Of a stretch of 64,000 nucleotides of DNA, positions 484 through 51,848 are shown piece by piece. Where the stretch lies: sequence record MT129654.1; one strand, written 5' to 3'. Made by a program: the position numbers and the translations under genes. The DNA is from Escherichia phage MN04. Every line of letters starts with the position of its first letter. Positions within the stretch are counted from its first letter, which is position 1. The notes below the pieces were generated by a model. That model was not told the origin of the DNA. It made no database searches and saw only the letters and a program-made list of their open reading frames with translations.

Positions 484-513
484 GTTTACATCCAAGGACG
501 GATGGAGTATAAT
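484..513 (+). promoter_or_regulatory. early promoter (GTTTAC -35 / TATAAT -10), PeSL-like
   Basis: GTTTACA, 18-nt spacer, TATAAT, then CTATCAACTA and SD. Confidence 0.55.
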
Positions 514-541
514 CCTTTTATCAACTACTGAGGAGAATATC

Positions 542-1552
542 ATGACCCGTACTGAATACATTAATGCCTTTACTACGTATATCACTGCCAACACCCCTCC
601 ATTAACCCCATATGTGGTAATAGTTTCTAATATCAATAAATGGGTCGACCAAATTGATGATGCATTATCGCGCTGTTTCAAAGCTGAAATCGAAAAGATA
701 GCGGGTCGTTTGTTTATTCCTGATATCGTAGATACATTTAAAGGTTCTCGACTGCTTTCTCGACTGGTCAATAAGGACATCCTTTCTGAGTTCGGTAAAG
801 AGAAATATCCGGGTTCTAGCCATGTTGTTAGCTACAAATGGTTTGGTGATACCATAAAAGATTATGTCAAAATTAAAGGTATGGACCCTAGTAGTTTATT
901 TCCGCAACGTTGGGTTAGCGAATTCAAGGCTAACTCTGCATTAATTCTCAAAGCGGCCTCTAAAACTATAGTTTCCGGTGATTGTCGTACTATTCACCCG
1001 ATGGCTAATTGCATGATTAAAACAAATAGTTATAAAGGAAAAGCTATTATTTCTGTTATTTGGTCACCTAATAGGAAACCTAAAGATGATGCGGAAGTTG
1101 TAAAGTATCAAGATATTGCTTACGATACCTTGAATACTATCGAACAAGCCTTAGCTTTGATGAATACAGTAGAGAAATATGAGACCCAAGAAGTTAAACA
1201 CCACTTAGGCTGGAAAGGATATGAAGTTTTAGTAACAGTTCGCGAAATCAAATACCCTGTTCTAAAAACTGACGCTGAAATTTACCAAGAAAAATGTGAG
1301 GAAATTGTGAATACTGATAAAGAGCCTGCTACATTAGAAGACTTGATTAACGACTTGAACAGCCCTATCATGGCCCATACACCAATTACTAAATCCAAGT
1401 TACCGGAAATCGTTGCCTTAGAAAAAGCGTATAAAGATGCCTTGGCTATTAACAAAAAACTGACTGGCCAATATACTGCTGCCAAGAAACTTTGGGAAGA
1501 GTCTACCAATCGTTTAGACCGTCTTGAACAAGCCCTGGAGCTGTTGAAATGA
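542..1552 (+). CDS. hypothetical early protein (336 aa)
   Basis: Long ORF; start refined to ATG 542, preceded by CTGAGGAGAA SD and a PeSL-like promoter at 484-513. Confidence 0.5.
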   Translation: MTRTEYINAFTTYITANTPPLTPYVVIVSNINKWVDQIDDALSRCFKAEIEKIAGRLFIPDIVDTFKGSRLLSRLVNKDILSEFGKEKYPGSSHVVSYKWFGDTIKDYVKIKGMDPSSLFPQRWVSEFKANSALILKAASKTIVSGDCRTIHPMANCMIKTNSYKGKAIISVIWSPNRKPKDDAEVVKYQDIAYDTLNTIEQALALMNTVEKYETQEVKHHLGWKGYEVLVTVREIKYPVLKTDAEIYQEKCEEIVNTDKEPATLEDLINDLNSPIMAHTPITKSKLPEIVALEKAYKDALAINKKLTGQYTAAKKLWEESTNRLDRLEQALELLK

Positions 1553-1770
1553 AATACCAATTAGCTGACGATATTGACCAAACTATTCCTGATTGGAATG
1601 CTGTTATTAAAATTGTCGAACGCCGTGAAAAAGCTTCTAAGAATGTTCCGAACTGTCCGGAATGTGGTACTGAACAGGTTCAGTTAGTCCAATGGCGACA
1701 TAATCCGCTTCAGTACAAATGCCGACATTGTAAGCACAAATTTGAGCGAGATGAAAATGGCAAAGCGTAA
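1549..1770 (+). CDS. small zinc-ribbon protein (CPECG...CRHCKH)
   Basis: Two CxxC pairs in the translation; start overlaps the upstream stop (ATGA). Confidence 0.45.
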
Positions 1771-1993
1771 AGAATATGTAGAGGCTGCCGATAAGGCAGT
1801 CCGCGAACTCACCGTAGCTTATTATAAAGAGCATGGTAAATTCCCGGACAGTTATTCAGTATTGAAATCTGCTTTAACTCGTTCGTATAATAATATACTA
1901 TCTGATGTGTATGATTTAAAATACGAACACCTAGAAAAATATGGAACGGAACTTGACCGTTCTGAAGCATTCAAACAAGTATTAGGAATTTAA
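1742..1993 (+). CDS. hypothetical protein (83 aa)
   Basis: ORF in the tight gene array; start uncertain. Confidence 0.4.
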
Positions 1994-1994
1994 A

Positions 1995-2258
1995 ATGTTT
2001 AAAGTTTATGGGTATGATTCAAATATTCACCGTTGTGTTTTCTGTGATAATGCTAAACGACTACTTGATGTTAAGAAACAACCTTACGAATTCATTAACG
2101 TGATGCCGGAAAAAGGTGTATTTGATGATGAGAAGATTGCTGAACTCTTGGCTGCACTTGGTCGTGAATCTCAAGTAGGTTTGACTATGCCTCAGGTATT
2201 TGCTCCTGATGGAACTTCTATTGGTGGCTTTGACCAACTGCGAGCATATTTCAAATGA
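1995..2258 (+). CDS. nrdC: NrdC thioredoxin/glutaredoxin
   Basis: 87 aa, MFKVYGYDSNIHRCVFCDNAKRLL... near-identical in pattern to recalled T4 NrdC; CxxC active site. Confidence 0.85.
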   Translation: MFKVYGYDSNIHRCVFCDNAKRLLDVKKQPYEFINVMPEKGVFDDEKIAELLAALGRESQVGLTMPQVFAPDGTSIGGFDQLRAYFK

Positions 2259-2412
2259 TTGAATTATTGTTGGGTGTTTTGTATCTTATCATCGGCATTG
2301 GTTATGCTAAGACTCTAGCTAAATTAGATGATTCCGGTGACTTTTGTTCGTGGCTGACGTCTATGATTTGTTGGCCTTTATTTCTGGTTGGTGCTTCATT
2401 CTGGAACTTTAA

Positions 2413-2601
2413 ATGACTGAATTTGATATGGCTTATGGAACCTGCGCAAGAGAGTTTGCAAGTGAGTTTGATACTCCCGCGCCTAGTAAAGAAACCGTAT
2501 TGGCAAATCTCCCGGATTGGTTAAAAGAAGAAGCCACTGAATGGGGTTGGACTGATACTTGTGTACGTGACCAGCTATTTGAATTTATGGTGGAATTATG
2601 A
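2413..2601 (+). CDS. hypothetical acidic protein (62 aa)
   Basis: ORF, gene packing. Confidence 0.4.
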   Translation: MTEFDMAYGTCAREFASEFDTPAPSKETVLANLPDWLKEEATEWGWTDTCVRDQLFEFMVEL

Positions 2602-2906
2602 TTGAATTAAACGAACAGACCATTTTTCTAGGTGATGGCACCGAAGATGACCTAGAATATAAACTATACGAATATATGGTTTGGTTGGCTAAAGCAGAAG
2701 GTATTGACTTTGTTGTGGCTAATCCGTATGGTGAGAATACTGTTGTAATCGGTGACATTGCTTATGAAGTCCAATGGCAATACGTTGGGCTTGAATCTGA
2801 AGAATTTGAAGAAGATGAACATGGCGATTGGCATCCGGTTGGTCCTTGGTACTGGGACGACGGTGAGCCTGATTTTGAAGTATCAAGCTATTGGAGTGAC
2901 CAATGA
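2598..2906 (+). CDS. hypothetical acidic protein (102 aa)
   Basis: ORF with overlapping stop/start (ATGA). Confidence 0.45.
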   Translation: MIELNEQTIFLGDGTEDDLEYKLYEYMVWLAKAEGIDFVVANPYGENTVVIGDIAYEVQWQYVGLESEEFEEDEHGDWHPVGPWYWDDGEPDFEVSSYWSDQ

Positions 2907-3223
2907 CTATTGAAAATGAATTAGATGTTGATGCTGTTTTAAGCGAAATCATTGAAGACCATGATGCGTTTACTGAATCATACGAGTTTGAATTTTCGGA
3001 CTACCTGGTTCCGGTTGAATTAGGCGAATGGACACAAACCGGCAAATACCAATATCGCCAGGCAATTTATTTCAGCAAAAAACATAATGTGCATGTGGCT
3101 GTAAACGAAACTCGTACCGGCTCTTATCATACCGACTGGGACCATATGGTCCCGACTGTTGAACTGGTTAAGCTCCAAGAACGTGTCGTAACCCAAACTA
3201 TCCGAGAATGGATTACGCTATAA
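2903..3223 (+). CDS. hypothetical protein (106 aa)
   Basis: ORF with overlapping stop/start. Confidence 0.45.
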   Translation: MTIENELDVDAVLSEIIEDHDAFTESYEFEFSDYLVPVELGEWTQTGKYQYRQAIYFSKKHNVHVAVNETRTGSYHTDWDHMVPTVELVKLQERVVTQTIREWITL

Positions 3224-3340
3224 AACCATGGTATACCGCTCGATGGGAAACCGTCGAGCCAGAGGAACCGGTTTACAACGATTCCGAAATAGAGTATAAT
3301 GAACCTTCAAACAATGATTTAATCGATATGGAGTTTGGAT

Positions 3341-3514
3341 ATGAGTACCAAAATTGAAATTGGCCGTCATAAAGGCCGTCTGATTGAACATTCGCTTTAC
3401 GAGTTATCGGATTCAGGTTCTTTACCTGACCTAGAGTCTGATTTGATTAAAGCTGCAGCCGATTATATCCATTGGCTTGAAGCGCAACTCCGCTTTGCTG
3501 ATAAGGCGTTCTGA
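3341..3514 (+). CDS. hypothetical small protein (57 aa)
   Basis: ATG with GGAG upstream; stop overlaps the next start (ATGA). Not in the ORF track (<60 aa). Confidence 0.35.
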   Translation: MSTKIEIGRHKGRLIEHSLYELSDSGSLPDLESDLIKAAADYIHWLEAQLRFADKAF

Positions 3515-5121: not shown

Positions 5122-5171
5122 TATTTACTTCCTCTCCTCATGTGTTATAGTCTATCCTATCAACACATGAG
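5122..5171 (+). promoter_or_regulatory. PeSL-like element with an 11-bp stem that includes the SD
   Basis: TATTTAC...TATAGT, plus inverted repeat CCTCATGTGTT / AACACATGAGG. Confidence 0.45.
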
Positions 5172-5180
5172 GAGAACATT

Positions 5181-5363
5181 ATGACCATCCAAGATAAAGA
5201 AATTAAAGCCGACCAGTATTATTTGGTAAATGGACGTGCGGTTCGTGTAATTGCTGCTAGTGATTCAGACGTATGGTATCGTGTACTAGACCATAAAAAT
5301 ATTCCATTGATGGTATGTGACGGTAGCTTGTTTTGTTCGATAGCTAAGGAAATTAAATTATGA
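5181..5363 (+). CDS. hypothetical protein (60 aa)
   Basis: ORF following a PeSL-like element whose stem contains the SD. Confidence 0.4.
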   Translation: MTIQDKEIKADQYYLVNGRAVRVIAASDSDVWYRVLDHKNIPLMVCDGSLFCSIAKEIKL

Positions 5364-5616: not shown

Positions 5617-5910
5617 ATGGGTAAAACTATCCGTCGTAAAGAATTGCCATCTAGAGATTTTAATTGCATTGCTAGACGTAAAGCACCTGATGGCGTATCG
5701 GAAGAAACTTTGAATGAAAATATCTTCCGGTCAGATAAATGGAAACGCTTTAGCGGTGTTGATTCTGAAGTTAAGAATGAAATGAATCGCCAACTTCGTA
5801 AAGAAGTGAGAAAGCTGAAAAAAGATGTTTACAACGACGATGAACCTGATTACAATACTTCTCATCGAGTTGCAAAACGTAAATCAAACGAGTGCTATCG
5901 TTACAGCTGA
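5617..5910 (+). CDS. hypothetical basic protein (97 aa)
   Basis: ORF; Lys/Arg-rich. Confidence 0.4.
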   Translation: MGKTIRRKELPSRDFNCIARRKAPDGVSEETLNENIFRSDKWKRFSGVDSEVKNEMNRQLRKEVRKLKKDVYNDDEPDYNTSHRVAKRKSNECYRYS

Positions 5911-6049
5911 GGAAAATATGAATATCAAACGTATGCTTTTTAAACAAGGATTATACACCTTAAATGTTGCTCCAAAAGGCGATACGACTAAGTGGTCAGT
6001 AAATGACTGGATTGAATTTATTGATGAAAACGGCAACTGGAAAATTTAA

Positions 6050-6250
6050 ATGAATCCTGAATCTAAATTATCACAACGAATTGCTGAAGCCCGTCGTCAG
6101 TTCTTTGAAAATATGGTAGCTCAAGGTATTGATGACGAAGTTTTTCTAAACTGGTTTTGGAATAACAAATATTCAAAATGTGCAGGAGCAATATTAATAT
6201 CGGCCGCAATGATGTATGAAGGTTGGAAAGGCGCACTAGCACAAAAATAG
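6050..6250 (+). CDS. hypothetical protein (66 aa)
   Basis: ORF, gene packing. Confidence 0.4.
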   Translation: MNPESKLSQRIAEARRQFFENMVAQGIDDEVFLNWFWNNKYSKCAGAILISAAMMYEGWKGALAQK

Positions 6251-6279
6251 TTTACAAACTCTTGGGACCAGAGTATAAT
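6250..6279 (+). promoter_or_regulatory. early promoter, PeSL-like
   Basis: GTTTAC, 18 nt, TATAAT; the -10 sits in the loop of GGGACCA/TGGTCCC. Confidence 0.55.
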
Positions 6280-6319
6280 GGTCCCCACGGATTATAAATT
6301 TTAAACTGAGGAAATTATT

Positions 6320-6649
6320 ATGTCACAAGCTATTAAAAACGTACTGAACTCTTTCGCTTTCGATAAAGTTAATGAACTGATGAAAACTGGCTTTGTAACT
6401 CCTCAGGTTCTTGACCAATGGGTTGCTGAACTGTTACCAATCATGCACTCTAAAGACCAAAAAATTGGTAAGAACGGTATTCGTGAAATCCTGGTTCAAT
6501 ATATTCTTGATGAGTTTGATGTTGCTGCCTTCGGTGTTGAATCTAAAGCTTGGCACCCAGGTGAAATCACAGACAAAACCATCCGTCGTATGAAGAACCA
6601 ACGTAAGAAAAAATTCGTTGACCTGAAAATTGTTAAGGCTGCGAAATGA
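6320..6649 (+). CDS. hypothetical protein (109 aa)
   Basis: ATG preceded by CTGAGGAAATTATT TIR and a PeSL-like promoter at 6250-6279. Confidence 0.5.
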   Translation: MSQAIKNVLNSFAFDKVNELMKTGFVTPQVLDQWVAELLPIMHSKDQKIGKNGIREILVQYILDEFDVAAFGVESKAWHPGEITDKTIRRMKNQRKKKFVDLKIVKAAK

Positions 6650-18265: not shown

Positions 18266-18295
18266 GTTTACATACCACATGGAACGTGGTAGTAT
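18266..18295 (+). promoter_or_regulatory. early promoter, PeSL-like
   Basis: GTTTAC, 18 nt, TAGTAT, then CTATCAACTACATGAGGAA. Confidence 0.5.
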
Positions 18296-18325
18296 CCTTC
18301 CTATCAACTACATGAGGAAATTATA

Positions 18326-18562
18326 ATGGAAGCTTTAATCGTTAGTGCTGGTGTTTTAGGATTTGGTTCTCTGGTTATTATGTTCATTGGTTACTTTTTA
18401 CCATGGATTCTGGCTCTTCTGCGAGGCACTCGTAGCAATGTTGGAATCTTCTTCCTTAATCTCCTGTTAGGATGGACTATGATTGGTTGGGTAGTGGCTT
18501 TAATCTGGGCTATCGTCGCTGAACGTAAATCAAACGCACAAATCATTATCGTTAAACAATGA
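18326..18562 (+). CDS. small two-TM membrane protein; Imm-like by position
   Basis: 78 aa with two hydrophobic helices, directly downstream of 43 where T4 has imm; no sequence-level confirmation. Confidence 0.4.
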   Translation: MEALIVSAGVLGFGSLVIMFIGYFLPWILALLRGTRSNVGIFFLNLLLGWTMIGWVVALIWAIVAERKSNAQIIIVKQ

Positions 18563-26586: not shown

Positions 26587-26592
26587 TTAAGG

Positions 26593-26621: not shown

Positions 26622-26645
26622 AGACCTATCAACTTGGAGAACAAA

Positions 26646-27549: not shown

Positions 27550-27579
27550 GTTTACATCGGTCTATGGTAGTGATACTAT
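27550..27579 (+). promoter_or_regulatory. early promoter, PeSL-like
   Basis: GTTTAC, 18 nt, TACTAT, then AGACCTATCCACT. Confidence 0.55.
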
Positions 27580-27607
27580 AGACCTATCCACTAATGAGGA
27601 GTTAAAA

Positions 27608-31059: not shown

Positions 31060-31064
31060 TTATA

Positions 31065-31088
31065 AGGAACCTTCGGGTTCCTTTTTTC
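31065..31088 (+). terminator. intrinsic terminator after soc
   Basis: AGGAACCTTCGGGTTCCT hairpin plus T6. Confidence 0.7.
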
Positions 31089-31097: not shown

Positions 31098-31127
31098 GTT
31101 TACTTTACGAGTAGGCCATGTTAAGAT
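31098..31127 (+). promoter_or_regulatory. early promoter, PeSL-like (weaker -10)
   Basis: GTTTAC, 18 nt, TAAGAT. Confidence 0.4.
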
Positions 31128-31153
31128 AGATGTATCTTATAGAGGAGAACACT

Positions 31154-31363
31154 ATGTTAAATCGTTGGATTAAACCAAATAAAACTTTGGATGAAATTAT
31201 CGCTAATCACGTATTGAAAAAGTACTTCTATACTCCTTGGTATACCGAAGTTATTGTCCATTCATTTATGATGCATGAAGACGGTTCTATCGAATTTAAT
31301 GCCGAAATCCGTCACGAGACTGATGATATTGATAAGGTTGAATTTAAACGAGGTTTCCTATGA
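31154..31363 (+). CDS. hypothetical protein (69 aa)
   Basis: AGAGGAGAA SD before ATG 31154, downstream of a PeSL-like promoter. Confidence 0.4.
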   Translation: MLNRWIKPNKTLDEIIANHVLKKYFYTPWYTEVIVHSFMMHEDGSIEFNAEIRHETDDIDKVEFKRGFL

Positions 31364-32519: not shown

Positions 32520-32707
32520 TGGACTTATTTGATATGTTTGTCATTCCGGACCCTGAGCCTGAAACAACTCAGGAGCCGCCTGTTGACCTTGTCAACGAAC
32601 TTGATATGATTATACAGAAGCACGGTTTTAAGTTGCCTAAAGATGCCCTGGCTGACCTTGCTTCTTACTATCAAGACCCTCCACCATGGGCACCTTGGGT
32701 AAAATAA
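32519..32707 (+). CDS. hypothetical acidic protein (62 aa)
   Basis: ORF, overlapping start. Confidence 0.35.
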   Translation: MDLFDMFVIPDPEPETTQEPPVDLVNELDMIIQKHGFKLPKDALADLASYYQDPPPWAPWVK

Positions 32708-32940
32708 TGAATTGGCTAACTAATATACCTACATCGGCATTAGATATCGACCGTAAACAAGCCCGTAAGGAAATCGAGCAAAAAAATATTCAGGCAAAAG
32801 CTCCTAAGATTACGGCCAAGGCGCCGGAAATAAAAAGCTCTTATGAAACAAAAAGCTCTTATACTTCATATACCCAATCCCTAACAGGCCAAGCCGCTGA
32901 CATTGCGGTGTTTGGCGTCCCACTCGGTGTGTTTAAGTAG
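32707..32940 (+). CDS. hypothetical protein (77 aa)
   Basis: ATG overlapping the upstream stop. Confidence 0.4.
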   Translation: MNWLTNIPTSALDIDRKQARKEIEQKNIQAKAPKITAKAPEIKSSYETKSSYTSYTQSLTGQAADIAVFGVPLGVFK

Positions 32941-32997
32941 TTTACACCTCCTCCCTTCATGTTATAATGACCTCTAAATCACTGGAGGTCATATGAA
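32940..32997 (+). promoter_or_regulatory. early promoter plus SD-sequestering stem-loop before modB
   Basis: GTTTACA...TATAAT, then ATGACCTC / GAGGTCAT inverted repeat enclosing GGAGG and the ATG. Confidence 0.5.
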
Positions 32998-33562
32998 CAT
33001 CGAACAAAAATGTCTTTATCAAGACCGAATCAATTCCAAATTTTCAAAATCTGAACAAGCGTTGTTAGAGAAATGTCTGGATGCCAAAAAAGACCCTAAC
33101 TTCCATTACGACCTAGACAAACTGGTTCGTAAGCATGTCACTTCAGTGGTTCCGGTAGAGCTTTATCGTGGGATTACCACCAGAGAACTTGGGCAATTAG
33201 AGCTCCTTTCAGTAGGATGTCAATGGTCTCCTGGCCGGGTTACTTCTTTTAGTACACAATACTCTCAGGCTTGCCAGTTCGCAGGGTCATGGGAATATGG
33301 AACCAAAACCATTTTAAGTCTCAGGAATGCACCCTTCATTTTTGACTACTACAATCATGCTATCGACCTTGTTCTTGCAGGGAGTGCGGACGAACTTGAA
33401 ATAGATGAAACCCGTATTGACCTCTATGATATGGTCGAAACCGAATGTGAGTTCATGGTCTCTAGCCTATCACGATTTGAGATTGTTGAAATCGAAACTA
33501 TCAAAAGAGACCCATACGACATCGAGTACAAAATAATTCATTTAAAAATGTTGGATTTTTAG
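32993..33562 (+). CDS. modB: ADP-ribosyltransferase ModB-like
   Basis: R-S-E-type hints (LYRGIT, S-x-S, acidic E-x-E region); paralogous to the next gene; soc-dda locus as in T4. Confidence 0.5.
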   Translation: MNIEQKCLYQDRINSKFSKSEQALLEKCLDAKKDPNFHYDLDKLVRKHVTSVVPVELYRGITTRELGQLELLSVGCQWSPGRVTSFSTQYSQACQFAGSWEYGTKTILSLRNAPFIFDYYNHAIDLVLAGSADELEIDETRIDLYDMVETECEFMVSSLSRFEIVEIETIKRDPYDIEYKIIHLKMLDF

Positions 33563-33591
33563 TTTACAGGCAAGGAAGCTTGTGGTACTAT
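33562..33591 (+). promoter_or_regulatory. early promoter, PeSL-like
   Basis: GTTTAC, 18 nt, TACTAT. Confidence 0.5.
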
Positions 33592-33616
33592 CTTTCTATC
33601 AACTGAGGAGAATAAT

Positions 33617-34231
33617 ATGTTATATCCAAGCCATAAATTAGCAGAATTTATCAACAATGCCAAATGCGACGATTTCCGTGAGAATACCCAGATAGAAATT
33701 GATGAGGTGTATTCTGATTTAGAACAGAGCACGCTCTGGCAGTGTATGGAAAATAAACCTGATTCTATCCAGGAAACTCTGAACAAAATTATTCGTAAGA
33801 ACCTGACTTCTGTAGTGCCTGATAAGCTCTATCGCGGTATATCTAAAAAGACCCTGAAGTATCTAGAGTCCACAATGTGTGTGGGTGCGGTAATTGAATT
33901 CGACCGCGTGATGAGCTTCTCTAAAGACTTCAACGTAGCAAGGAATTTCGCATCTTATAACTTCTACGGCACATTTAATATCTTTTGTATTAATGATGCG
34001 CCATTTGTGTACAATTATCAGGAAGAAATCTTTAAAATGTTATGTGCTGCGCCCCCTGAAGAGTTCCCAGGCGCATTTCCTGAATCTACACGTGTAGCAA
34101 ACTTACAATTAATTAATGATGAAGATGAGATGATGTTCCCTGCGGGAACTACGCTGCGCGTAGACTCTATTGAGAGAAATCCTAAATGGAATAATTACAC
34201 CATTTGGAATCTTTCCGTTCTTTCTTACTGA
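33617..34231 (+). CDS. modA: ADP-ribosyltransferase ModA-like
   Basis: LTSVVPDKLYRGIS block shared with the upstream paralogue (HVTSVVPVELYRGIT); position matches T4 modA. Confidence 0.5.
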   Translation: MLYPSHKLAEFINNAKCDDFRENTQIEIDEVYSDLEQSTLWQCMENKPDSIQETLNKIIRKNLTSVVPDKLYRGISKKTLKYLESTMCVGAVIEFDRVMSFSKDFNVARNFASYNFYGTFNIFCINDAPFVYNYQEEIFKMLCAAPPEEFPGAFPESTRVANLQLINDEDEMMFPAGTTLRVDSIERNPKWNNYTIWNLSVLSY

Positions 34232-34300: not shown

Positions 34301-34329
34301 GTTTACTTTATTAAGCAACATGATACTAT
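34301..34329 (+). promoter_or_regulatory. early promoter, PeSL-like
   Basis: GTTTAC, 17 nt, TACTAT, then AGACCTATCAACT. Confidence 0.55.
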
Positions 34330-34368
34330 AGACCTATCAACTAATCGTCCGTAAGATGAGAAAATATC

Positions 34369-35118
34369 ATGCCTACTATTAAAACTAACGATGAATTTGA
34401 GTTAAAGGTTTACAACCGCCGCAAACACACCAAAGCTTCTGCTTATAAACGCGGTAAGGACTTCAATCTGTCCAGTAAGTATGTTCGTAGACTTCTCGAA
34501 CAAAAAGTGTGCGCTTATTCAGGCGAGTACTTTGATGAAAATTCAGTTAATGATAAGATTTCATTTGAACGTTTTAACAACGATATCGGTTATATTGAGG
34601 GTAATGTAATCCCAGTTAAAGTTAAGTATAACAGCTTACGTGCCGATTTGTCCCTTGATGAACTGAAACGTGCTCAGACTCGTTTAGCAGTTCGTATTTC
34701 AGGTAGTTCTAAAATGCCTAATAGTTTTAAAGTTACTCCTGATAACTATTATAAAATCCGTAAAATCGTTAAAAATATAAAAGATACCCAAAGAGGTCTT
34801 AAAAAACGTGAAAAACGTCTTAAAGACCTTATTAAATCGGGAGCTACTGATAAGACTCCTTCTGTTATCGCGGTTAAGGCCCGTATCCATGGTTCTAACG
34901 CTTCAATAGGTACTATGGAAAAAGGTCTTAAATCTTTAATTGGTGGGCCTGATTGGCGTGTTAAGTTTAAATTGTCTGAAGCAGAAACGCGTTACGATAT
35001 GTATGATAAAATTATTCAAGGTCTGGAGCGTTTAGAACACCTTTCTTTTATTGACAAATTGAAGTTGAAAAAAGGTCTTCCGCTGAATGCTTCAATTTTT
35101 TCACTGATTAGAGGTTAA
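34369..35118 (+). CDS. hypothetical protein (249 aa); Srd-like by size and position only
   Basis: ORF between modA and dda where T4 has srd; basic, coiled-coil-like C-terminal half. Confidence 0.4.
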   Translation: MPTIKTNDEFELKVYNRRKHTKASAYKRGKDFNLSSKYVRRLLEQKVCAYSGEYFDENSVNDKISFERFNNDIGYIEGNVIPVKVKYNSLRADLSLDELKRAQTRLAVRISGSSKMPNSFKVTPDNYYKIRKIVKNIKDTQRGLKKREKRLKDLIKSGATDKTPSVIAVKARIHGSNASIGTMEKGLKSLIGGPDWRVKFKLSEAETRYDMYDKIIQGLERLEHLSFIDKLKLKKGLPLNASIFSLIRG

Positions 35119-37669: not shown

Positions 37670-37698
37670 GTTTACTTCTCCTCATGACATGATATTAT
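37670..37698 (+). promoter_or_regulatory. early promoter, PeSL-like with stem-loop
   Basis: GTTTAC, 17 nt, TATTAT; TCCTCATG / CATGAGGA inverted repeat. Confidence 0.5.
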
Positions 37699-37725
37699 CT
37701 ACCCTATCAACATGAGGAGAACAAA

Positions 37726-38229
37726 ATGAAAATTTATCGAGTTGAGTCATCGTTCAGTATCTTAGATGATGGAAACGCTATCACAATACGACGAGACCTC
37801 TGTACTCAAATGACTCCGTATAGAAGTACAATGGACTCATGGAGTGAAGGCTGGTTATTGGAAGTAGGTTTCGACAGACCCAATTTTAAGCATCGTCATA
37901 CCATCAATAAAAATATTCCACTACCAAGTCAAGATAAGTTGCTGGTAGAAAATTCTAATAAAACCATTAGAACTAAGTGGAAACGGCCTGATTATGAAGA
38001 CTGTGATGATTATATTCCAGGTTGGTTTGTTAACCTCTACCATTTTGCTTTTGCCAGTGAGTATGATATGATGCGCTGGTTCACTCGTGAAGAGCGTAAA
38101 GAATTATCTTCTAAAGGATTCTATCTTGCCGTTTACGAAATACCTGAAGATGAGGTAGTCATTGGTGACCGCCAAGTAATGTTCCGCAAGTCCCATGCTG
38201 AACTCGTAGATTTTATTGAAATGAGATAA
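37726..38229 (+). CDS. hypothetical protein (167 aa)
   Basis: GAGGAGAA SD behind a PeSL-like promoter. Confidence 0.5.
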   Translation: MKIYRVESSFSILDDGNAITIRRDLCTQMTPYRSTMDSWSEGWLLEVGFDRPNFKHRHTINKNIPLPSQDKLLVENSNKTIRTKWKRPDYEDCDDYIPGWFVNLYHFAFASEYDMMRWFTREERKELSSKGFYLAVYEIPEDEVVIGDRQVMFRKSHAELVDFIEMR

Positions 38230-38231: not shown

Positions 38232-38783
38232 ATGAAATTTAATTATAATCCCAAATACACACCGAACCCGGCGGCCAAATTGATTGATTTTGATGTTTTA
38301 AGCACTTATGCAGCCCCTATTGAACCATTAGAAATTAAGGAAACCACTATGACTACTCAGACTATCGAAATCGGTAAAACCTACAAACTGGTTGAACCTG
38401 AAATTAAAACTAAGGCCTTGATTTCTGGTTATAAAACTCTGACTGATGTTTTTGGCGAAGGCGAATTTATTGTTGAAGAATTCGCTAAAAGTGAGTGGTT
38501 TGACAAATCTTACGTCATCCACGGTCGCCGGTTAGATAATAACAAAATAGAGAAAAACCTGGTTTATGAAGATGAATTTGGGCTTTTCCGTGAAGTCGGA
38601 GTCGAACAAGACCCTACAGACCTGTTGTGTGCTGCTGTGGCTATCCGTCGTCCTTTTGATAATCCTATCTGTGGTTGGGTAACAGACCAGTGGATTGAAG
38701 ATGGTGTTGAACTCCTGAACGTTGTACATGCTGGTGATTTTAGCGTAGTACCTCGTAGTGCAGTGGTTAATGTATTGAATTAA
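38232..38783 (+). CDS. hypothetical protein (183 aa), tandem paralogue A
   Basis: C-terminal W(V/I)TDQW(I/V)E(D/G)GV(E/K)L..V...G.F.VVP shared with the 38857 ORF. Confidence 0.5.
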   Translation: MKFNYNPKYTPNPAAKLIDFDVLSTYAAPIEPLEIKETTMTTQTIEIGKTYKLVEPEIKTKALISGYKTLTDVFGEGEFIVEEFAKSEWFDKSYVIHGRRLDNNKIEKNLVYEDEFGLFREVGVEQDPTDLLCAAVAIRRPFDNPICGWVTDQWIEDGVELLNVVHAGDFSVVPRSAVVNVLN

Positions 38784-38785: not shown

Positions 38786-38814
38786 GTTTACTTTATCGAG
38801 AGCCATGTTATAAT
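38786..38814 (+). promoter_or_regulatory. early promoter, PeSL-like
   Basis: GTTTAC, 17 nt, TATAAT; -10 in the loop of GAGAGCCAT/ATGGCTCT. Confidence 0.55.
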
Positions 38815-38856
38815 GGCTCTTATGGATTATAATCCTTTAACCAAGAGAGAAAAATT

Positions 38857-39408
38857 ATGATTACTATCGGTGAAATTGTTCGTGTATCCAAAGAATCTCG
38901 CTCAAAAGCCGCAGGTCGTTTTGTTGAAGTTGCAGGTATTCGTACCAATTTAGTAGGTGGAATTAAAGAAGTTAAAGTGCGTATTATTCCTAAAAATGGC
39001 CAGACCGAAACCGAATTTGCTTATGTTCGCCCTAAATTTTTAAAATCGACTGAATTTACCGGATACATCGCTCCTGTAGTTGAAGAAGTTGAATCCCATG
39101 ATGGGTATGTATGTGAAAGCAATGATATTCGCGGCGTAGTAGCTCAAGACGTTGAAACTATTGACCAATCTCATGTCGGCGTTGATTTCAAATGGAAATT
39201 AGGTCGAGGAGTGTGTTTTAATACTCCTAAACCGTTCAAATATGTTGACGAACCTTTTGGTACTTACGAAACCAGTAGCATGTCTGGTTACATCACAGAC
39301 CAGTGGGTTGAAGGTGGCGTTAAGCTCTATAACATCGTGTTCCTTGGAACCTTTAAGGTTGTTCCTGAAAGCTTTATTGTTGAATATGCTAACATTCACC
39401 GTGCATAA
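38857..39408 (+). CDS. hypothetical protein (183 aa), tandem paralogue B
   Basis: Same length and conserved C-terminal block as the 38232 ORF. Confidence 0.5.
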   Translation: MITIGEIVRVSKESRSKAAGRFVEVAGIRTNLVGGIKEVKVRIIPKNGQTETEFAYVRPKFLKSTEFTGYIAPVVEEVESHDGYVCESNDIRGVVAQDVETIDQSHVGVDFKWKLGRGVCFNTPKPFKYVDEPFGTYETSSMSGYITDQWVEGGVKLYNIVFLGTFKVVPESFIVEYANIHRA

Positions 39409-39569
39409 AGTTTAAAAAACAGTATACAATACGGTAGGGTAGTGATAAGATTACCCTATCAAAACAAATGAGTGAAATGGAGAATAAAAATGTTTGCACC
39501 TTATATTATGATTACAGTTATCGTTATCTGTCTGTATCTTTTAATTAAAGCTTGTTAAGGAGATTTAAA

Positions 39570-39791
39570 ATGACTACTAAAATCACTGCAAACTCGACTC
39601 GTGAAGAATTTGAAGATGTTCTGTTCAACCCTGATTTAATCGTGGTTCAAAAGGAACATTCTGATACGTTTTCTCATTTATCGTCGGTTTATGTATACGA
39701 AAATCAAGGTGATAAAAACCCTATGTATGCAGTGTTCCGTGAAATCACTGCTGAAGGCACCGACTTCTGGAAGGAAACTTACAATGCTTAA
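39570..39791 (+). CDS. hypothetical protein (73 aa)
   Basis: AAGGAG SD before ATG 39570. Confidence 0.4.
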   Translation: MTTKITANSTREEFEDVLFNPDLIVVQKEHSDTFSHLSSVYVYENQGDKNPMYAVFREITAEGTDFWKETYNA

Positions 39792-40287
39792 TCAAGAACT
39801 TGAATTTGAAAAAGGTAAATGGTACTATTTTAAAGATGACGCGGCAGAAGCTGAATTCCGTAAGCTGAATTCCCATAATATTAGGACTCCTAATAATTCT
39901 TCTATAGCAGATATTATTGTCAATTCTGAAGGTTTTTGCCCTGTTAGATTAGCGGCAGGTTATGTGATGAACGTGGACTTGGCTTATGGTGATAACATTG
40001 ATATGGTTTTATATCCAAGCGAGCGTAAATTCTTTACGGAAATGGTTGTAGTTGACAGTGAAGACGAATGGGCCGAAGATGGTTTTTCTGAAGAAGACCG
40101 GTCTGAACCGAGTGATTTCCCTTTGACTAAAATCACTATGGAAATGGGTTTAGTTGGCGGTGAAGACCAGTCTGAAGACGCAGCCCCATATGAACCGAGT
40201 GATTTCCCTTTGACTAAAATCACTATCTCCAATAATTCTGAAGCCTGGACTGTTTACCGGATGTTGAAAGCCCACTTTAAGGAATAA
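39784..40287 (+). CDS. hypothetical acidic protein with internal 11-aa repeat (EPSDFPLTKIT x2)
   Basis: ORF; nucleotide direct repeat inside the CDS. Confidence 0.45.
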   Translation: MLNQELEFEKGKWYYFKDDAAEAEFRKLNSHNIRTPNNSSIADIIVNSEGFCPVRLAAGYVMNVDLAYGDNIDMVLYPSERKFFTEMVVVDSEDEWAEDGFSEEDRSEPSDFPLTKITMEMGLVGGEDQSEDAAPYEPSDFPLTKITISNNSEAWTVYRMLKAHFKE

Positions 40288-42616: not shown

Positions 42617-42823
42617 TAAATACGTACGGTACATGAGTACCGTATAAAAGGAGACTTTATGAGAAAGTACTGGGTTACGCTCGTCACAGGTGAATATGGT
42701 TATCTCTGGACAGATACACGTCCTCTTTTTGCAGAGTACGTTACTATCACAGTTGAAACATGGGACGGCGAAGTTTACCAAACCCGTGGTCAAGTTTATA
42801 GAGTCGATTCAAGCAACTAATTA

Positions 42824-42846
42824 AGGGCCGCAAGGCCCTTTTTTGG
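42824..42846 (+). terminator. intrinsic terminator
   Basis: AGGGCCGCAAGGCCCT hairpin plus T6. Confidence 0.65.
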
Positions 42847-42895
42847 GGTTTACAACAGATTAAAAGTGTGATACGATTCTCTAAGAGGTGAGAAT

Positions 42896-43219
42896 ATGAT
42901 TATGCAAGATAATAGTATAGTGAACACTGGCAACTTGGCTTTGTCTTTTATGGAGACCGCAATTCGCAATTGTAAAGACGAAGGAGTAGTGATTACAAGC
43001 GGCAAGGGACTAGAATATCTCAAGGCTGTAAAATCTATTGCCTTAAAGATTAAAGATAACCAGGCGCTCTCTCCTGTTGTCCAGGAAAAGGTTCTAGAGA
43101 TATTGTATCGCCACAGAGAGCACAAAAGTACAATGGGTTCTATGAGAAGAATTCTGGCTGAACTAGGTTCTACCAGAGAATATGTTCAACATGAGGTAGT
43201 TAAAAATGACAAACTTTAA
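42896..43219 (+). CDS. hypothetical protein (107 aa)
   Basis: GAGGTGAGAAT-ATG TIR. Confidence 0.45.
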   Translation: MIMQDNSIVNTGNLALSFMETAIRNCKDEGVVITSGKGLEYLKAVKSIALKIKDNQALSPVVQEKVLEILYRHREHKSTMGSMRRILAELGSTREYVQHEVVKNDKL

Positions 43220-47669: not shown

Positions 47670-47699
47670 GTTTACATACACCATGGATGGTGTTACTAT
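47670..47699 (+). promoter_or_regulatory. early promoter, PeSL-like
   Basis: GTTTAC, 18 nt, TACTAT, then CTATCAACTACATGAGAGG. Confidence 0.55.
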
Positions 47700-47730
47700 C
47701 TTCCTATCAACTACATGAGAGGAAAACAAA

Positions 47731-47991
47731 ATGGATATCAAATTATATTACGCTAAACACAAAGTTACGGGTAAAGTTGTTGCCGCAATGTACGATGCAT
47801 CAGGTGAAGATGTTATTACGGAATTATCCCTTTCTAATTGTAGATTTCTTCGTCCTTTGATAGCGTCAAAAAAAGATTTACAAAAACTTATCGACGGTAA
47901 ATTAGATAATGTCGATGATATAGATATCCATTATGAACTCCGCCATGCACTGAATGATGGGTTTATGGAAATAAAAGAGCTAGTATTATGA
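47731..47991 (+). CDS. hypothetical protein (86 aa)
   Basis: GAGAGGAAAA SD behind a PeSL-like promoter. Confidence 0.45.
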   Translation: MDIKLYYAKHKVTGKVVAAMYDASGEDVITELSLSNCRFLRPLIASKKDLQKLIDGKLDNVDDIDIHYELRHALNDGFMEIKELVL

Positions 47992-48081: not shown

Positions 48082-48110
48082 GTATACATCTCCATTAGAC
48101 ATGATATTAT
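48082..48110 (+). promoter_or_regulatory. early promoter, PeSL-like (variant -35 GTATAC)
   Basis: GTATAC, 17 nt, TATTAT, then AGACCTATCAACT. Confidence 0.45.
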
Positions 48111-48420
48111 AGACCTATCAACTAATGGAGATGATTATGAAAAACTTACTTAAAGCAATTTGGAACATGTTTGTGTTATTGGTTGTATTGAGCATTTTCC
48201 CAATAGTTTTTATGATTGACCATGTACGTGTATTCTTTAACTTCTGAGGAAAATATTATGGGTAATCGAATTTATAAAGTAAAGTTGCATGGTAAAGTGA
48301 TTACTACCGTTAGTTTTAATTTTTATATCAGCGCTGACTGCGCCCGCGATATCCTCATCGAGGAAGGATATAGCGAATACATCCAAATTGAAGAAGTTCT
48401 TTAATTCTGAGGAAAATATT

Positions 48421-48645: not shown

Positions 48646-48659
48646 TTGAGGAAAATATT

Positions 48660-49004
48660 ATGTCTAAAGTATTTTTTGGTAATTCTAAAGTTATGTTCTT
48701 TGAGCAACTCAGTCTTAAAGAGGCATTGGCAGCCTTCAATCAAGAACTGGTTACTGGGTTAGATTCAAAAACTATGGCAAGTGCGGATTTCGTTTTCGTT
48801 CAAGACCCGGATACAGGGTTTTATCGATTCATCAAATTCCGTATGAGCATGGACCCTGACTATCGTAGTGCTTACTATGTGAGTTACGAAAATGTTATCG
48901 AAGAATTACGTGATACCTATGGACGTGCTTTGAACCCACTGAATAAGGTTTATAATGCGTCCTTTTATACGAGCGGATTTATTTTAGAACAGCTACAAAA
49001 ATAG
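48660..49004 (+). CDS. hypothetical protein (114 aa)
   Basis: TTGAGGAAAATATT-ATG TIR. Confidence 0.45.
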   Translation: MSKVFFGNSKVMFFEQLSLKEALAAFNQELVTGLDSKTMASADFVFVQDPDTGFYRFIKFRMSMDPDYRSAYYVSYENVIEELRDTYGRALNPLNKVYNASFYTSGFILEQLQK

Positions 49005-49032
49005 TTTACAACCTCGAGAATCATGTTATAAT
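49004..49032 (+). promoter_or_regulatory. early promoter, PeSL-like
   Basis: GTTTAC, 17 nt, TATAAT; flanking near-palindrome GAGAATCAT/ATGGTTCTC. Confidence 0.55.
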
Positions 49033-49081
49033 GGTTCTCGTTGACTGGATAACAAAACATTAATCTACTGAGGAAATTGAT

Positions 49082-49531
49082 ATGAATACTTATATGACTC
49101 GCGGTAACGTTCTGTCTGCTGGTGCTACTACTGTTGCTTATGTTAAGAATGGCGAATACCAAAATGGTAAGCCTTCTAAAGAAATCTCAGCCCAGCCAGG
49201 CTTCTACTTCTTTGTTAAAGGTGAAGCAGATTCTCGTGTCGTAGCCGCTCGCTTTTATGTCGGCAACCAACGTTCAGCTCAAGGTCTTGATGGTATTGTG
49301 GCTAACATTCGTAAGAAACGTTCGCAATCAGCTCGTACTATGGCTGTGAATGGTGTAGTGTATGAAGTTCTTTATGTACCTGCTTCTAAAATGAAACCAC
49401 TGACTACAGGTTTTGGTAAGGGTCAAATTGCAATGGCTTTCACTCGCAACCATAGTTCCGACCTTCAGACCCTGGAAGAAATGAACCGCATGTTGGCTGA
49501 TAACTTTAAATTCGTTCTGCAGGCTTACTAA
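49082..49531 (+). CDS. ndd: nucleoid disruption protein Ndd
   Basis: 149 aa; RFYVGNQRS...[17 protein letters not shown]...TRNH...[19 protein letters not shown] matches recalled T4 Ndd. Confidence 0.85.
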
Positions 49532-49608: not shown

Positions 49609-49618
49609 TGAGGAAAAT

Positions 49619-51297: not shown

Positions 51298-51398
51298 GCC
51301 TTGGAGTCGAGTTCTTGTTACTCTGTATCTTTGCTGTTATCCTAGGCCTGGCGACAGGCTTAGCTATAGGTTTAATAGCAGCCCACTTTAAAAAGTAA
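51294..51398 (+). CDS. small hydrophobic peptide (34 aa)
   Basis: ATG overlapping the gene 52 stop; single predicted TM helix; followed by a terminator. Confidence 0.3.
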   Translation: MSLGVEFLLLCIFAVILGLATGLAIGLIAAHFKK

Positions 51399-51420
51399 GG
51401 AACCTTCGGGTTCCTTTTTG
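51398..51420 (+). terminator. intrinsic terminator after gene 52
   Basis: AGGAACCTTCGGGTTCCT hairpin plus T5 (same sequence as at 31065). Confidence 0.65.
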
Positions 51421-51438
51421 GGTTTAGTGCAAAAAAGT

Positions 51439-51467
51439 GTTTACATCTGCTTTAAACATGATACTAT
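51439..51467 (+). promoter_or_regulatory. early promoter, PeSL-like (duplicate copy 1)
   Basis: GTTTAC, 17 nt, TACTAT, then AGACCTATCAAATAAATGAACTGAAAC. Confidence 0.55.
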
Positions 51468-51515
51468 AGACCTATCAAATAAATGAACTGAAACAAACAA
51501 CCCGGAGATACAAAA

Positions 51516-51743
51516 ATGAAATTTAAAATCGAAAACGAAATCGTTAAAGCTAAAAATGCTCTGACTGCTAACAAACTGGTTGTAGATGGTATTGAATATG
51601 ATATCTGTGGAGTTCGTGAAGAAAAACCCGGTGTTCTGACTTTCTTCACAATGATTTTTAAATTTAAAGGTGACACAGAATTCAAACAGTTTGATTTTGC
51701 CCCTGAAGACGAAATCGAAGTTCGTAATCTGAACATTAAGTAA
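51516..51743 (+). CDS. hypothetical protein (75 aa), flanked by duplicated PeSL-like elements
   Basis: ORF with GGAG SD between two near-identical ~60-bp cassettes. Confidence 0.45.
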   Translation: MKFKIENEIVKAKNALTANKLVVDGIEYDICGVREEKPGVLTFFTMIFKFKGDTEFKQFDFAPEDEIEVRNLNIK

Positions 51744-51782
51744 GTACTTTATTAGAGCTCTTGAAAAAGAGCTCAAAATAAA

Positions 51783-51811
51783 GTTTACTTCTGCTTTAAA
51801 CATGATACTAT
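51783..51811 (+). promoter_or_regulatory. early promoter, PeSL-like (duplicate copy 2)
   Basis: Near-identical to the 51439 copy over about 60 bp. Confidence 0.55.
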
Positions 51812-51848
51812 AGACCTATCAAATAAATGAACTGAAACGGAGATTAAA

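Follow-up and report, generated by a model that had tools for sequence, protein, structure and literature searches.

The cassettes treated in this report belong to a class that has already been described, the PeSLs, one criterion of which is that recombination between neighboring cassettes yields mini-circles. In published accounts, a PeSL consists of an AT-rich stretch, a sigma-70 early promoter, a stem-loop, an SD and an ATG, situated between small early ORFs (Arbiol 2010, PMC2839356; Comeau 2014, PMC4122927); PeSL-like sequences in phage JS98 have been remarked on (Arbiol 2010, PMC2839356). T4-type early promoters carry GTTTAC at -36 to -31, an A-rich segment at -40 to -44, a GT-rich segment 5' of -12 and C at -3 to -1 (Nolan 2006, PMC1524935), and those of T4 have been described as "uber UP/-35/TGn/-10" (Hinton 2010, PMC2988021). 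The RegB/S1 cleavage consensus is GG*A(G/U)RAYARAA (PMC3014915).

How do the cassettes of Escherichia phage MN04 compare with these systems? We analyzed a window of 64 kb (64,000 nt, record MT129654.1). Over 10 kb, the MN04 stretch has 98.3% identity to JS98, and by this sequence comparison the source genome is a JS98-like Dhakavirus, a T4-type coliphage. The MN04 cassettes share with the PeSLs of RB49/phi1, T4/PST and KVP40/nt-1 the same composite order and the location between small early ORFs. In both, the stem lies mostly between the boxes or overlaps the -10 and contains G-T pairs, and an ORF with a cassette on each side may be found, missing or replaced in relatives, with crossovers between the -10 and the ATG. 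The differences are that the MN04 stems are not of the GGGG/CCCC type, that the promoter has the T-even form (GTTTAC, TAyWAT), and that there is no general enrichment at indels; SD masking and RegB sites are also absent from the discussion in Arbiol 2010 and Comeau 2014. The proposed PeSL identity was supported: the cassettes follow the published sequence definition, and their stems exceed chance and covary. To the existing description, the MN04 sequence adds stems that clearly covary and one gene module, bounded by cassettes, that different phage genera share.

The original prediction was of a recurring family of at least 19 early-promoter cassettes, each of 55–70 bp, ending at 51845. The strict pattern GTTTAC-N17/18-TAnnAT matched 20 times in the window, only on the plus strand, which is that of the early genes, vs. 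1 match expected; the pattern scan compared GTTTAC-N16-19-TAnnAT with shuffled sequence, which yielded a mean of 1.0 matches and a maximum of 4. When one -35 mismatch was allowed, three further copies emerged, at 5123 (ATTTAC) and at 39422 and 48082 (both GTATAC); relatives have GTTTAC at the counterparts of all three. The family was thereby confirmed, with 23 cassettes spanning 484 to 54233, and the position of the last one carries it slightly past the predicted end. Twenty of the 23 are intergenic, with the -10 located 18–49 nt 5' of a start codon, and the three that lie within coding sequence (3271, 5827 and 52370) have no stem. Junctions that hold a cassette have a median gap of 73 nt, vs. 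about 0 for those without one. An unsupervised repeat search returned the cassettes as its top direct-repeat families: D1 (65 nt, six copies), D2, D4, D5 and D8. The copies are as follows.

484–544, plus strand: cassette of the nrdC.4 homologue; GTTTAC, 18-nt spacer, TATAAT, ccttttATCAACT, GAGGAG SD, ATG at 542; small hairpin inside the spacer; conserved in relatives.
3271–3343, plus strand: weak or uncertain member in 49.1-like coding sequence, without TGn or stem; T4 positional counterpart at 47452.
5123–5183, plus strand: cassette before the 55.6 homologue, with an ATTTAC -35; anti-SD stem of 12–14 bp (5132–5145 with 5163–5175) around the -10 and presumed start, MFE -25.5, z -7.7; the L070 version of the stem has wobble-compatible changes.
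5827–5920, plus strand: weak or uncertain member in 55.5-like coding sequence; the 55.4 homologue comes next; T4 counterpart at 41261.
6250–6322, plus strand: family-B cassette before the 55.2 homologue; stem GGGACC/GGTCCC (6264–6269 with 6280–6285) with TATAAT in the loop, then GGATTATAAAT; no difference from the T4 motB promoter cassette between the -35 and the end of the stem.
18266–18328, plus strand: cassette before the imm homologue, just 3' of gene 43, with a hairpin in the spacer; paralogue of 47670 (repeat D4), 83% identical over 72 nt to the JS98 counterpart of 47670, upstream of orf262.
26593–26648, plus strand: cassette before the orf34 homologue; AGACCTATCAACT exact; its SD, GGAGAACAAAA, fits the RegB consensus at 11/11 positions; weak anti-SD pairing TTCTCC/GGAGAA.
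27550–27610, plus strand: cassette before sp (spackle); 11-bp stem (27559–27569 with 27574–27584) pairing the spacer with the -10 and start region, z -3.1.
31098–31156, plus strand: cassette before the mrh.2 homologue; T4 counterpart at 15288.
32940–32995, plus strand: cassette before modB; a leader hairpin (32969–32974 with 32984–32990) pairs the SD in the cassette's own transcript, z -3.7.
33562–33619, plus strand: cassette before modA.
34301–34371, plus strand: cassette before srd; AGACCTATCAACT exact; repeat D1.
37670–37728, plus strand: cassette before motB.2; SD GGAGAACAAAA, RegB consensus 11/11; anti-SD stem (37676–37686 with 37711–37721) around the -10, z -5.8; the T4 orthologue has the same fold with other arm sequences.
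38786–38859, plus strand: family-B cassette before motB; stem GAGAGCCAT/ATGGCTCTT (38798–38806 with 38813–38821) around the -10, z -3.0.
39422–39491, plus strand: cassette with GTATAC, followed by a 100-nt insert specific to the window; stem GGTAGGGTA/TACCCTATC (39433–39441 with 39452–39460) around the -10, z -4.2.
42848–42898, plus strand: cassette in the gap after gene 39; the ORF at 42896 (107 aa) exceeds in length JS98 rIIA.1, the next same-strand gene annotated in JS98; the matching T4 motif is at 2458, between rIIA.1 and gene 60.
47670–47733, plus strand: cassette before the orf262 homologue.
48082–48139, plus strand: cassette with GTATAC before a 36-aa ndd.4-like ORF; AGACCTATCAACT exact; 11-bp anti-SD stem (48088–48098 with 48122–48132), z -5.5; orthologues retain the stem with different sequences.
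49004–49084, plus strand: family-B cassette before ndd; stem CGAGAATC/GGTTCTCG (49015–49022 with 49033–49040) around the -10; the leader site GGATAACAAAA at 49047 fits the RegB consensus at 11/11 positions.
51439–51518, plus strand: twin cassette 1, which duplicates the motA promoter cassette and precedes the ORF at 51516–51743; repeat D1.
51783–51851, plus strand: twin cassette 2, the motA promoter; TGCTTTA in the spacer; SD GGAGATTAAAA.
52370–52501, plus strand: weak or uncertain member in motA coding sequence, about 100 nt 5' of the arn.4 homologue.
54163–54235, plus strand: cassette before asiA; stem ATAAGG/CCTTAT across the -10.

We then asked whether the copies align beyond their hexamers. 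Indeed, they share an A-tract, a TGn and a CCT-ATCAAC block. In the logo of the cassette alignment, the A-tract UP element occupies positions -8 to -3 before the -35, and CCT-ATCAAC falls at the presumed start site; among the 20 strict matches, the extended -10 TGn is present in 16, and YYTATC lies 3' of the -10 in 11, vs. 2% by chance (P=6e-14). The block AGACCTATCAACT, once thought to run through the whole family, proved to be a subfamily trait confined to six copies (three exact, three with one mismatch). The overall sequence is that of an "uber" promoter: an A-rich UP element, a GTTTAC -35, TGn, a TAyWAT -10 and CC(T) immediately 5' of a start at A. At the level of sequence, all conserved blocks agree with what has been published on T4 sigma-70 early promoters; the cassettes are first and foremost ordinary T4-type early promoters. 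They share with the T4 set the consensus blocks and the strand, and 12 have T4 positional counterparts with the same genes downstream (motB.2, motB, srd, modB, mrh.2, sp, 55.6 and others). They differ from it in a start region that is more uniform in the MN04 lineage (CCTATCAAC) and in the placement of some cassettes at junctions that are promoter-less in T4, e.g. 55.2.

The GAGGAG SD attributed to the family is found at cassette 484, and SDs of the GGAG type occur in only 13 of the 23 cassettes. This is still a marked excess over the other genes (8/88; p=3e-6). Ten of the 19 sense-strand RegB/S1 consensus sites fall within cassette leaders, which make up 1.5% of the sequence (P=4e-14), and 10 of the 23 leaders match the consensus at 9 or more of its 11 positions. 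In these candidate sites, either the cassette SD or a sequence just 3' of the hairpin fits the cleavage consensus. The 11-nt consensus in early leaders and SDs is the same as in T4, and the closest relative also has regB (annotated in JS98; the gene lies outside the 64-kb window); T4 differs in that some of the MN04 candidates lie just 3' of a hairpin rather than in the SD.

Four inverted repeats had been singled out in the original prediction, and all are present, at 5132–5175, 32969–32990, 37676–37721 and 38798–38821. The cassettes fold with a mean z of -1.86, vs. -0.32 for controls (p=9e-4), and cognate spacer-leader duplexes among the window cassettes are stronger than non-cognate ones (P<5e-5). 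In 131 non-redundant T4-like promoters, there were 41 strong spacer-leader duplexes vs. 12.6 expected. In the 6-bp helix whose loop holds the -10, pairing was 100%, with compensatory double changes at 6/6 pairs, and 0/500 shuffles matched the score; the covariation alignment had 19 rows, five of them picked by a stem-based search. G.U accounts for about 9% of the pairs in the stems, and sense folding beats antisense folding 30 vs. 17 (p=0.01), a modest bias; both features point to RNA structure. Judging from these predicted folds, the stems behave as sense-strand RNA structures, several of which mask the SD only in transcripts started upstream.

Strong promoter-spanning stems are found in only about 9 of the 23 window cassettes. 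A stem-loop around the promoter or a terminator just upstream is present in about two thirds of the copies, and some stem or upstream terminator in 20 of 23. The promoter-spanning stems have no U-tract and thus are not canonical intrinsic terminators. At the 55.2 junction, the very place that holds the promoter-in-loop hairpin in other phages is taken in T4 by a plain intrinsic terminator. Hairpins of the terminator type stand just 5' of five cassettes, four of them with a T-run (26560, 31064, 42823 and 51397) and one without (51754):

26560–26583, plus strand: intrinsic terminator, AAGGAGCTTCGGCTCCTT then T8, directly 5' of cassette 26593; repeat D6.
31064–31087, plus strand: intrinsic terminator 5' of cassette 31098; repeat D6; its 23-nt core (31064–31086) is identical to 51397–51419.
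42823–42844, plus strand: terminator-like hairpin, GGGCCGCAAGGCCC then T6, directly 5' of cassette 42848; read from the sequence and absent from the terminator-scan list.
51397–51419, plus strand: intrinsic terminator 3' of gene 52 and 5' of cassette 51439; repeat D6.
51754–51774, plus strand: hairpin AGAGCTC-ttgaaaa-GAGCTC(T), between the cargo ORF (51516–51743) and twin cassette 2.

In the T4 genes e, soc, 49 and I-TevI, a hairpin sequesters the SD unless the transcript starts at the proximal promoter. Do the MN04 stems mask the SD in the same way? Masking, suggested earlier as something that folding might reveal, was predicted at 5123, 37670 and 48082 (weakly at 26593) and also at 32940; anti-SD stems occur in only 3–4 of the 23 cassettes. 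At 5123, 37670 and 48082 (weakly at 26593), four of four SD nucleotides are paired to the spacer, with z of -5.5 to -8.2. The anti-SD stems are kept in T4 and other lineages with different arm sequences; the SD itself forms the 3' arm in 16 of the 41 strong stems found among the 131 promoters, and spacer positions 1–3 show an excess of anti-SD 5-mers. The likeness to the T4 genes is that the SD-pairing 5' arm is predicted to lie upstream of the proximal promoter start; the difference is that the embedded promoter there is late and the logic temporal, whereas in MN04 it is an early sigma-70 promoter.

The cassettes were also proposed to drive modular gene shuffling. Specific cases bear this out. 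The twins at 51439 and 51783 are identical at 55 of 56 nt, unconstrained spacer and leader positions included, and flank a cargo ORF:

51516–51743, plus strand: cargo ORF of 75 aa (phrog_10955) between the twin cassettes.

This ORF is absent in two relatives, a different ORF takes its place in JS98, and a T4-like genome has it at 98% identity. The twin-cassette module has a counterpart of 97.9% identity in a T4-like genome with flanks of 62–64% identity, and the switches in identity occur inside the cassette. In relative g7520, the core of the 47670 cassette is duplicated and flanks an extra ORF. An indel of an 84-aa ORF ends exactly at the -35 of cassette 32940 (modB), one cassette type is found before five unrelated genes, and one genome holds three copies with the same stem. 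As a general tendency, however, shuffling did not hold up: across five close relatives, indel boundaries fell at 8 of 23 cassettes vs. 25 of 84 other junctions (OR 1.26, p=0.41).

Could the cassettes be plain promoters that evolved independently, alike under strong sigma-70 constraint, with incidental stems and indel links and no mobility? Every conserved block does have a known promoter or RBS role, and indel boundaries show no overall enrichment at cassettes. Nevertheless, such promoters would not be expected to match at unconstrained positions, as the twins do, nor to reproduce the T4 motB cassette at 55.2 from the -35 through the stem, nor to place one arbitrary stem at three loci in one genome. 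The covarying stems and the cassette-bounded module, 98% identical across genomes with 62% flanks, likewise speak against this explanation, and we consider it improbable. At the opposite extreme, the cassettes might be autonomous, selfish mobile elements (MITE-like or integron-cassette-like) with a dedicated transposase or recombinase. The dispersed copies and repeat-bounded modules would suit such elements, but all copies have a single orientation and are placed as promoters, no terminal inverted repeats, target-site duplications or associated recombinase were seen among the cassettes, and the crossovers lie within shared homology, as general homologous recombination predicts. This alternative is exceedingly improbable.

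The stems themselves admit other functions. In the original PeSL interpretation, they are purely transcription terminators or attenuators with no role in translation. One RB49 PeSL stem-loop cut downstream lacZ as strongly as rrnB T1 (Arbiol 2010, PMC2839356), the T4 55.2 junction substitutes a plain terminator for the promoter-in-loop hairpin, and five window cassettes have a terminator-type hairpin just upstream, four with T-runs. Yet the promoter-spanning stems lack U-runs, and a pure terminator would need neither an SD as the 3' arm (16 of 41 strong stems) nor the enrichment of anti-SD 5-mers; a purely terminating function is rather unlikely on this evidence. A role in DNA would accommodate the many stems that have the -10 hexamer in their loop: the repeats could extrude as a cruciform or hairpin and expose the -10, or serve as a site for phage-protein binding or recombination. 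How early promoters are shut off is said not to be understood (PMC2988021, PMC3014915), and a stem-binding recombination protein has been speculated upon (Arbiol 2010, PMC2839356). A role of this kind is highly doubtful, as the G.U stem pairs (~9%) become A.C mismatches on the other strand, folding is better in the sense than in the antisense direction, and the arbitrary arm sequences offer no common protein site. Loops of 10–30 nt are, moreover, unfavorable for cruciforms.

The cassettes are very probably sigma-70 early promoters of a JS98-like T4-type phage, packaged as compact expression units of the PeSL kind. We infer all functional steps for them from T4. Host RNA polymerase would fire the promoters immediately after infection, giving each small ORF its own burst of mRNA, which RegB would then inactivate. 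The stems would form in read-through sense RNA from upstream starts and may insulate the module by attenuating or stabilizing upstream RNA. For cassettes of the anti-SD class (5123, 37670, 48082 and, weakly, 26593), the stem would hide the ribosome-binding site, so that, we propose, the ORF is translated only from own-promoter transcripts. The modB cassette (32940), whose SD is paired even in its own transcript, does not fit promoter gating. Phage homologous recombination may occasionally cross over between cassettes, moving, deleting or swapping the intervening ORF, presumably because the same 50–70 nt recur on one strand.

More tentatively, about one T4-like early promoter in three might carry a hairpin that is a sense-RNA device, active only on read-through and belonging to one of two classes. 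One class, in which the loop contains the -10 and a RegB-type site comes next, would mark the borders between modules and insulate them; the other, which carries an anti-SD in the promoter spacer, would make an immediate-early ORF translatable from its own promoter alone and keep it silent on delayed-early or middle read-through RNA. If so, the latter class would do at early promoters what the gene e/soc mechanism does at late ones. The literature searched, a body that did not include the main T4 genome review (Miller 2003), yielded no account of such an early-promoter version. The modules also resemble lambdoid morons, which are single ORFs with their own promoter and terminator; unlike the MN04 modules, morons lack a repeated, conserved cassette at their borders, and they are regarded as products of illegitimate insertion.

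The original prediction held that at least 19 cassettes resembling promoter-early stem-loops (PeSLs) are dispersed over positions 484–51845. Indeed, the pattern GTTTAC-N16-19-TAnnAT was matched 20 times in the window, always on the + strand, compared to a mean of 1.0 (maximum, 4) in shuffled sequences. Allowing one mismatch in the -35 added 5123, 39422, and 48082 (cassettes are named by their first coordinate), the orthologues of which have GTTTAC in relatives. The dispersed family is thus real and comprises 23 units. Twenty are intergenic, with the -10 placed 18–49 nt 5' of the start codon; the other three (3271, 5827, and 52370) are located within coding sequence and have no stem. The median gap is 73 nt at cassette junctions vs. 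about 0 at other junctions. The early genes, on the + strand, run from nrdC.4 through gene 43, dda, rIIA, motA, and asiA to about 54.5 kb, beyond which the tail-fibre genes occupy the - strand. Over a 10-kb piece of the window, identity to Escherichia phage JS98 (Dhakavirus, Tevenvirinae) is 98.3%; the alignment of JS98 to the entire window gave about 95%.

The top families from an unsupervised repeat search are again the cassettes: D1 (65 nt, six copies), D2, D4, D5, and D8; a terminator family, D6, was returned as well. The intrinsic terminators at 31064–31086 and 51397–51419 have the same 23-nt sequence (AAGGAACCTTCGGGTTCCTTTTT), and an early promoter cassette lies just 3' of each; because a third, related copy is found at 26558–26587, they can be regarded as a small repeat family. 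A generic sigma-70 scan was uninformative (66 matches vs. 57 expected), and Rfam had no family within the window.

The copies align outside of the hexamers as well. The logo displays an A-tract 5' of the -35, (A/T)TC after it, (C)ATGn 5' of the -10, and CCT-A-TCAAC after the -10. Among the 20 strict matches, which were selected by their hexamers only, TGn is present in 16, and YYTATC occurs no more than 16 nt from the -10 in 11 (2% by chance; P = 6e-14). The 13-mer AGACCTATCAACT, put forward earlier as a general block, is found in only three exact copies and three with one mismatch, and is therefore a trait of a subfamily rather than of the whole family; as a loose motif with up to three mismatches, it is not significant (26 matches vs. 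19.4 expected).

T4-type early promoters have been described as having GTTTAC at -36 to -31, an A-rich UP region at -40 to -44, a segment rich in G and T 5' of -12, and C at -3 to -1 (Nolan 2006, PMC1524935), and as "uber" UP/-35/TGn/-10 promoters with extra consensus (Hinton 2010, PMC2988021). Judged by sequence, every block of the cassette has a counterpart among these features, and the cassettes appear to be, above all else, early promoters of the standard T4 type, which refines the earlier interpretation. The start site would be the A of ATCAAC in (C)CTATCAAC, 7–8 nt after the -10. Twelve cassettes have T4 counterparts 5' of the same genes; these were located by a pattern scan, as the T4 GenBank record contains no promoter features. 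Among them is a promoter 5' of motB.2, at about 8.2 kb, which from its map position may be the mutationally analysed P8.1. Known regulatory elements are hereby recognized in one more T4-type lineage, which aids annotation by marking at least 20 early transcription units along with the site where each probably starts.

A heptamer similar to a MotA box, TGCTTTA, occurs in the spacer of the motA promoter (51789–51801; also 51445–51457), but at a distance of just 7 nt from the -10; in middle promoters, 11–13 nt separate the two elements. The TGCTT..AAAC part of this spacer recurs in many promoters of motA orthologues from distant T4-like phages, and TGCTTTA could be a candidate site for MotA autoregulation.

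All four of the inverted repeats that had been listed in the prediction are present, and the stem-loops exceed chance in both folding and duplex energy. Folded from the -35 to the ATG, the cassettes had a mean z of -1.86, compared to -0.32 for random 70-mers (p = 9e-4), with z below -2 in seven. The duplex between a cassette's own spacer and own leader stood at -9.09, vs. -6.80 for non-cognate pairings in the window (permutation P < 5e-5); nine window cassettes have such a duplex at or below -10 kcal/mol. Across 131 non-redundant promoter-leader units from T4-like loci, 41 duplexes reached this level (12.6 expected), the -10 being enclosed in 24 of them and the SD paired in 16. Many phages contributed to an alignment of 19 cassettes located at the 55.2, motB, or ndd junction, five rows of which were picked via a stem search. 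In this alignment, a 6-bp helix with TATAAT in its loop is paired in 113 of 113 cells and has double-sided changes at all six pairs; slid controls were 40–54% paired. Its covariation score is 0.89 vs. 0.39 in shuffles, and none of 500 shuffles reached 0.89. G.U pairs make up 41 of 458 in the stems, and the sense strand folds better than the antisense (30 vs. 17, p = 0.01; control at 54%), both of which favour structure in the sense-strand RNA. The evidence favours selection on the promoter-spanning stems as RNA structures. Because the 5' arm is upstream of the start site, the stem could form only in transcripts begun further upstream. At the T4 55.2 junction, a plain intrinsic terminator takes the position of the stem and is followed by the same GGATAATAAAA element, which fits a role in which the stems would insulate or attenuate upstream RNA.

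Folding indicates that the stem masks the SD in 5123, 37670, and 48082, and weakly in 26593; the other cassettes fall outside this class. In these four, the part of the spacer that immediately follows the -35 can base-pair with the SD region, and the stems have free energies of -19 to -25 kcal/mol (z -5.5 to -8.2). An equivalent fold, made from other arm sequences, is seen at T4 motB.2 (-23.7, z -6.2). The stem of the ndd.4-like gene is kept in three lineages that differ in its sequence and even in the placement of an arm, and one 55.6 orthologue carries two changes, both wobble-compatible. Spacers are enriched in anti-SD 5-mers (11 of 131 vs. 2.7%), which nearly always occupy positions 1–3. 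Although the architecture is that of the translational gate of T4 e, soc, 49, and I-TevI (PMC3014915), the promoter in the window's stems is early. An ORF of this class would be translated from its own promoter only. This gating scheme does not fit the modB leader hairpin (32969–32990), in which the SD is paired in the cassette's own transcript as well. A literature search of partial coverage yielded no specific description of early-promoter anti-SD hairpins and no mention of translation in the context of PeSLs or early cassettes.

GGAG-type SDs precede 13 of the 23 cassette genes, compared to 8 of the 88 remaining genes on the + strand (p = 3e-6). Strong RegB/S1 sites follow the consensus GG*AGRAYARAA, with cleavage at GGAU too (PMC3014915). 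Requiring a match at 9 or more of 11 consensus positions, we counted 19 sense-strand sites in the early region (window 1–54520), 10 of them in the cassette leaders, which total 803 nt (P = 4e-14), and 31 on the antisense strand. Presumably, the cassette mRNAs are tagged for inactivation by RegB, as are T4 early mRNAs; JS98 encodes regB. This concentration is one quantitative addition to the known picture and, together with the anti-SD subclass and the strength of the stem covariation, is a less familiar point. Outside the cassette leaders, only nine sense-strand matches remain vs. 31 antisense (window 1–54520), which suggests that RegB-type sites are avoided within early coding sequence.

Do the cassettes also drive gene shuffling, as had been proposed? 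A comparison of the early region with that of five close relatives yielded 27 events, either indels or replacements. Their boundaries coincided with 8 of 23 cassette junctions and 25 of 84 other junctions (OR 1.26, p = 0.41). There was thus no enrichment, and a general driving role is not supported by this sample. One IMG/VR contig, 2974741249 (155 kb; L076, L020, L052, L007), was left out because its regular gap pattern resembles an assembly artefact; relative to the window, it is without blocks of ~100 nt at many scattered conserved-gene positions.

Specific events, in contrast, have the signature expected of cassette exchange. Cassettes 51439 and 51783, identical at 55 of 56 positions, lie on either side of a 75-aa ORF; in two relatives, a single cassette without the ORF occupies this locus, and JS98 has another ORF between the twins. 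L031, a T4-like IMG/VR genome, contains the same ORF, hairpin, and motA cassette with 97.9% identity over 333 nt, whereas its gene 52 end and motA are 62–64% identical to the window. The high identity begins within the cassette, where CTATCAA immediately follows the -10, and stops at the motA SD/ATG; Arbiol 2010 (PMC2839356) mapped mini-circle crossovers to the same interval, from -10 to ATG. L031 and the window provide a clear-cut case of phage genera having a cassette-bounded gene module in common. The relative g7520 has an extra ORF between duplicated copies of the cassette 47670 core, and one cassette type stands 5' of five unrelated genes across phages. Three copies with the same stem occupy different loci of one genome, while other stems are found at the orthologous loci elsewhere, a pattern that would be expected of copying between loci. 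Cassette-mediated exchange is documented by individual events, not by a general enrichment. A reading as MITEs or transposons was rejected: the cassettes all point the same way and show neither terminal repeats nor target duplications, and their crossovers fall within stretches of shared homology.

The window's units conform to the sequence-level definition of PeSLs, and PeSL-like sequences near gene 43 of JS98 were already mentioned by Arbiol 2010. By this definition the cassettes can be classed as PeSL-type elements of an already described kind, and the interpretation first offered is upheld with two refinements, the promoter class and exchange by single events. Together, the data provide directly testable hypotheses on insulation, expression timing, and exchange of small early genes in T-even phages.

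Several smaller differences from relatives were observed. An 84-aa ORF (32686–32940, phrog_14077) is shared with JS98 alone; five other relatives lack it, and the segment missing from them stops precisely at the -35 G of the modB promoter. Right after cassette 39422, an insert of ~100 nt (39473–39576) found only in the window contains a mini-ORF whose 22-aa product (MFAPYIMITVIVICLYLLIKAC) is hydrophobic; the counterpart of this cassette in relatives directly adjoins the next gene. None of the six Dhakavirus relatives compared has the 106-aa ORF of 2903–3223, which belongs to phrog_2294 (family label, ribonucleotide reductase); the insertion that holds it has no cassettes at its boundaries. 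The most divergent part of the window with respect to close relatives is the gp37/gp38 distal tail-fibre/adhesin region (55551–59223), with replacement blocks of 0.5–4 kb. The goF-like gene contains a 50-nt direct repeat (40090–40139 and 40177–40226; 88% identity, 87 nt apart) that coincides with a length polymorphism in relatives (40139..40204). Finally, motB.1 and motB have in common a 59-nt stretch (38667–38725 and 39280–39338; 73% identity), consistent with their being paralogues.
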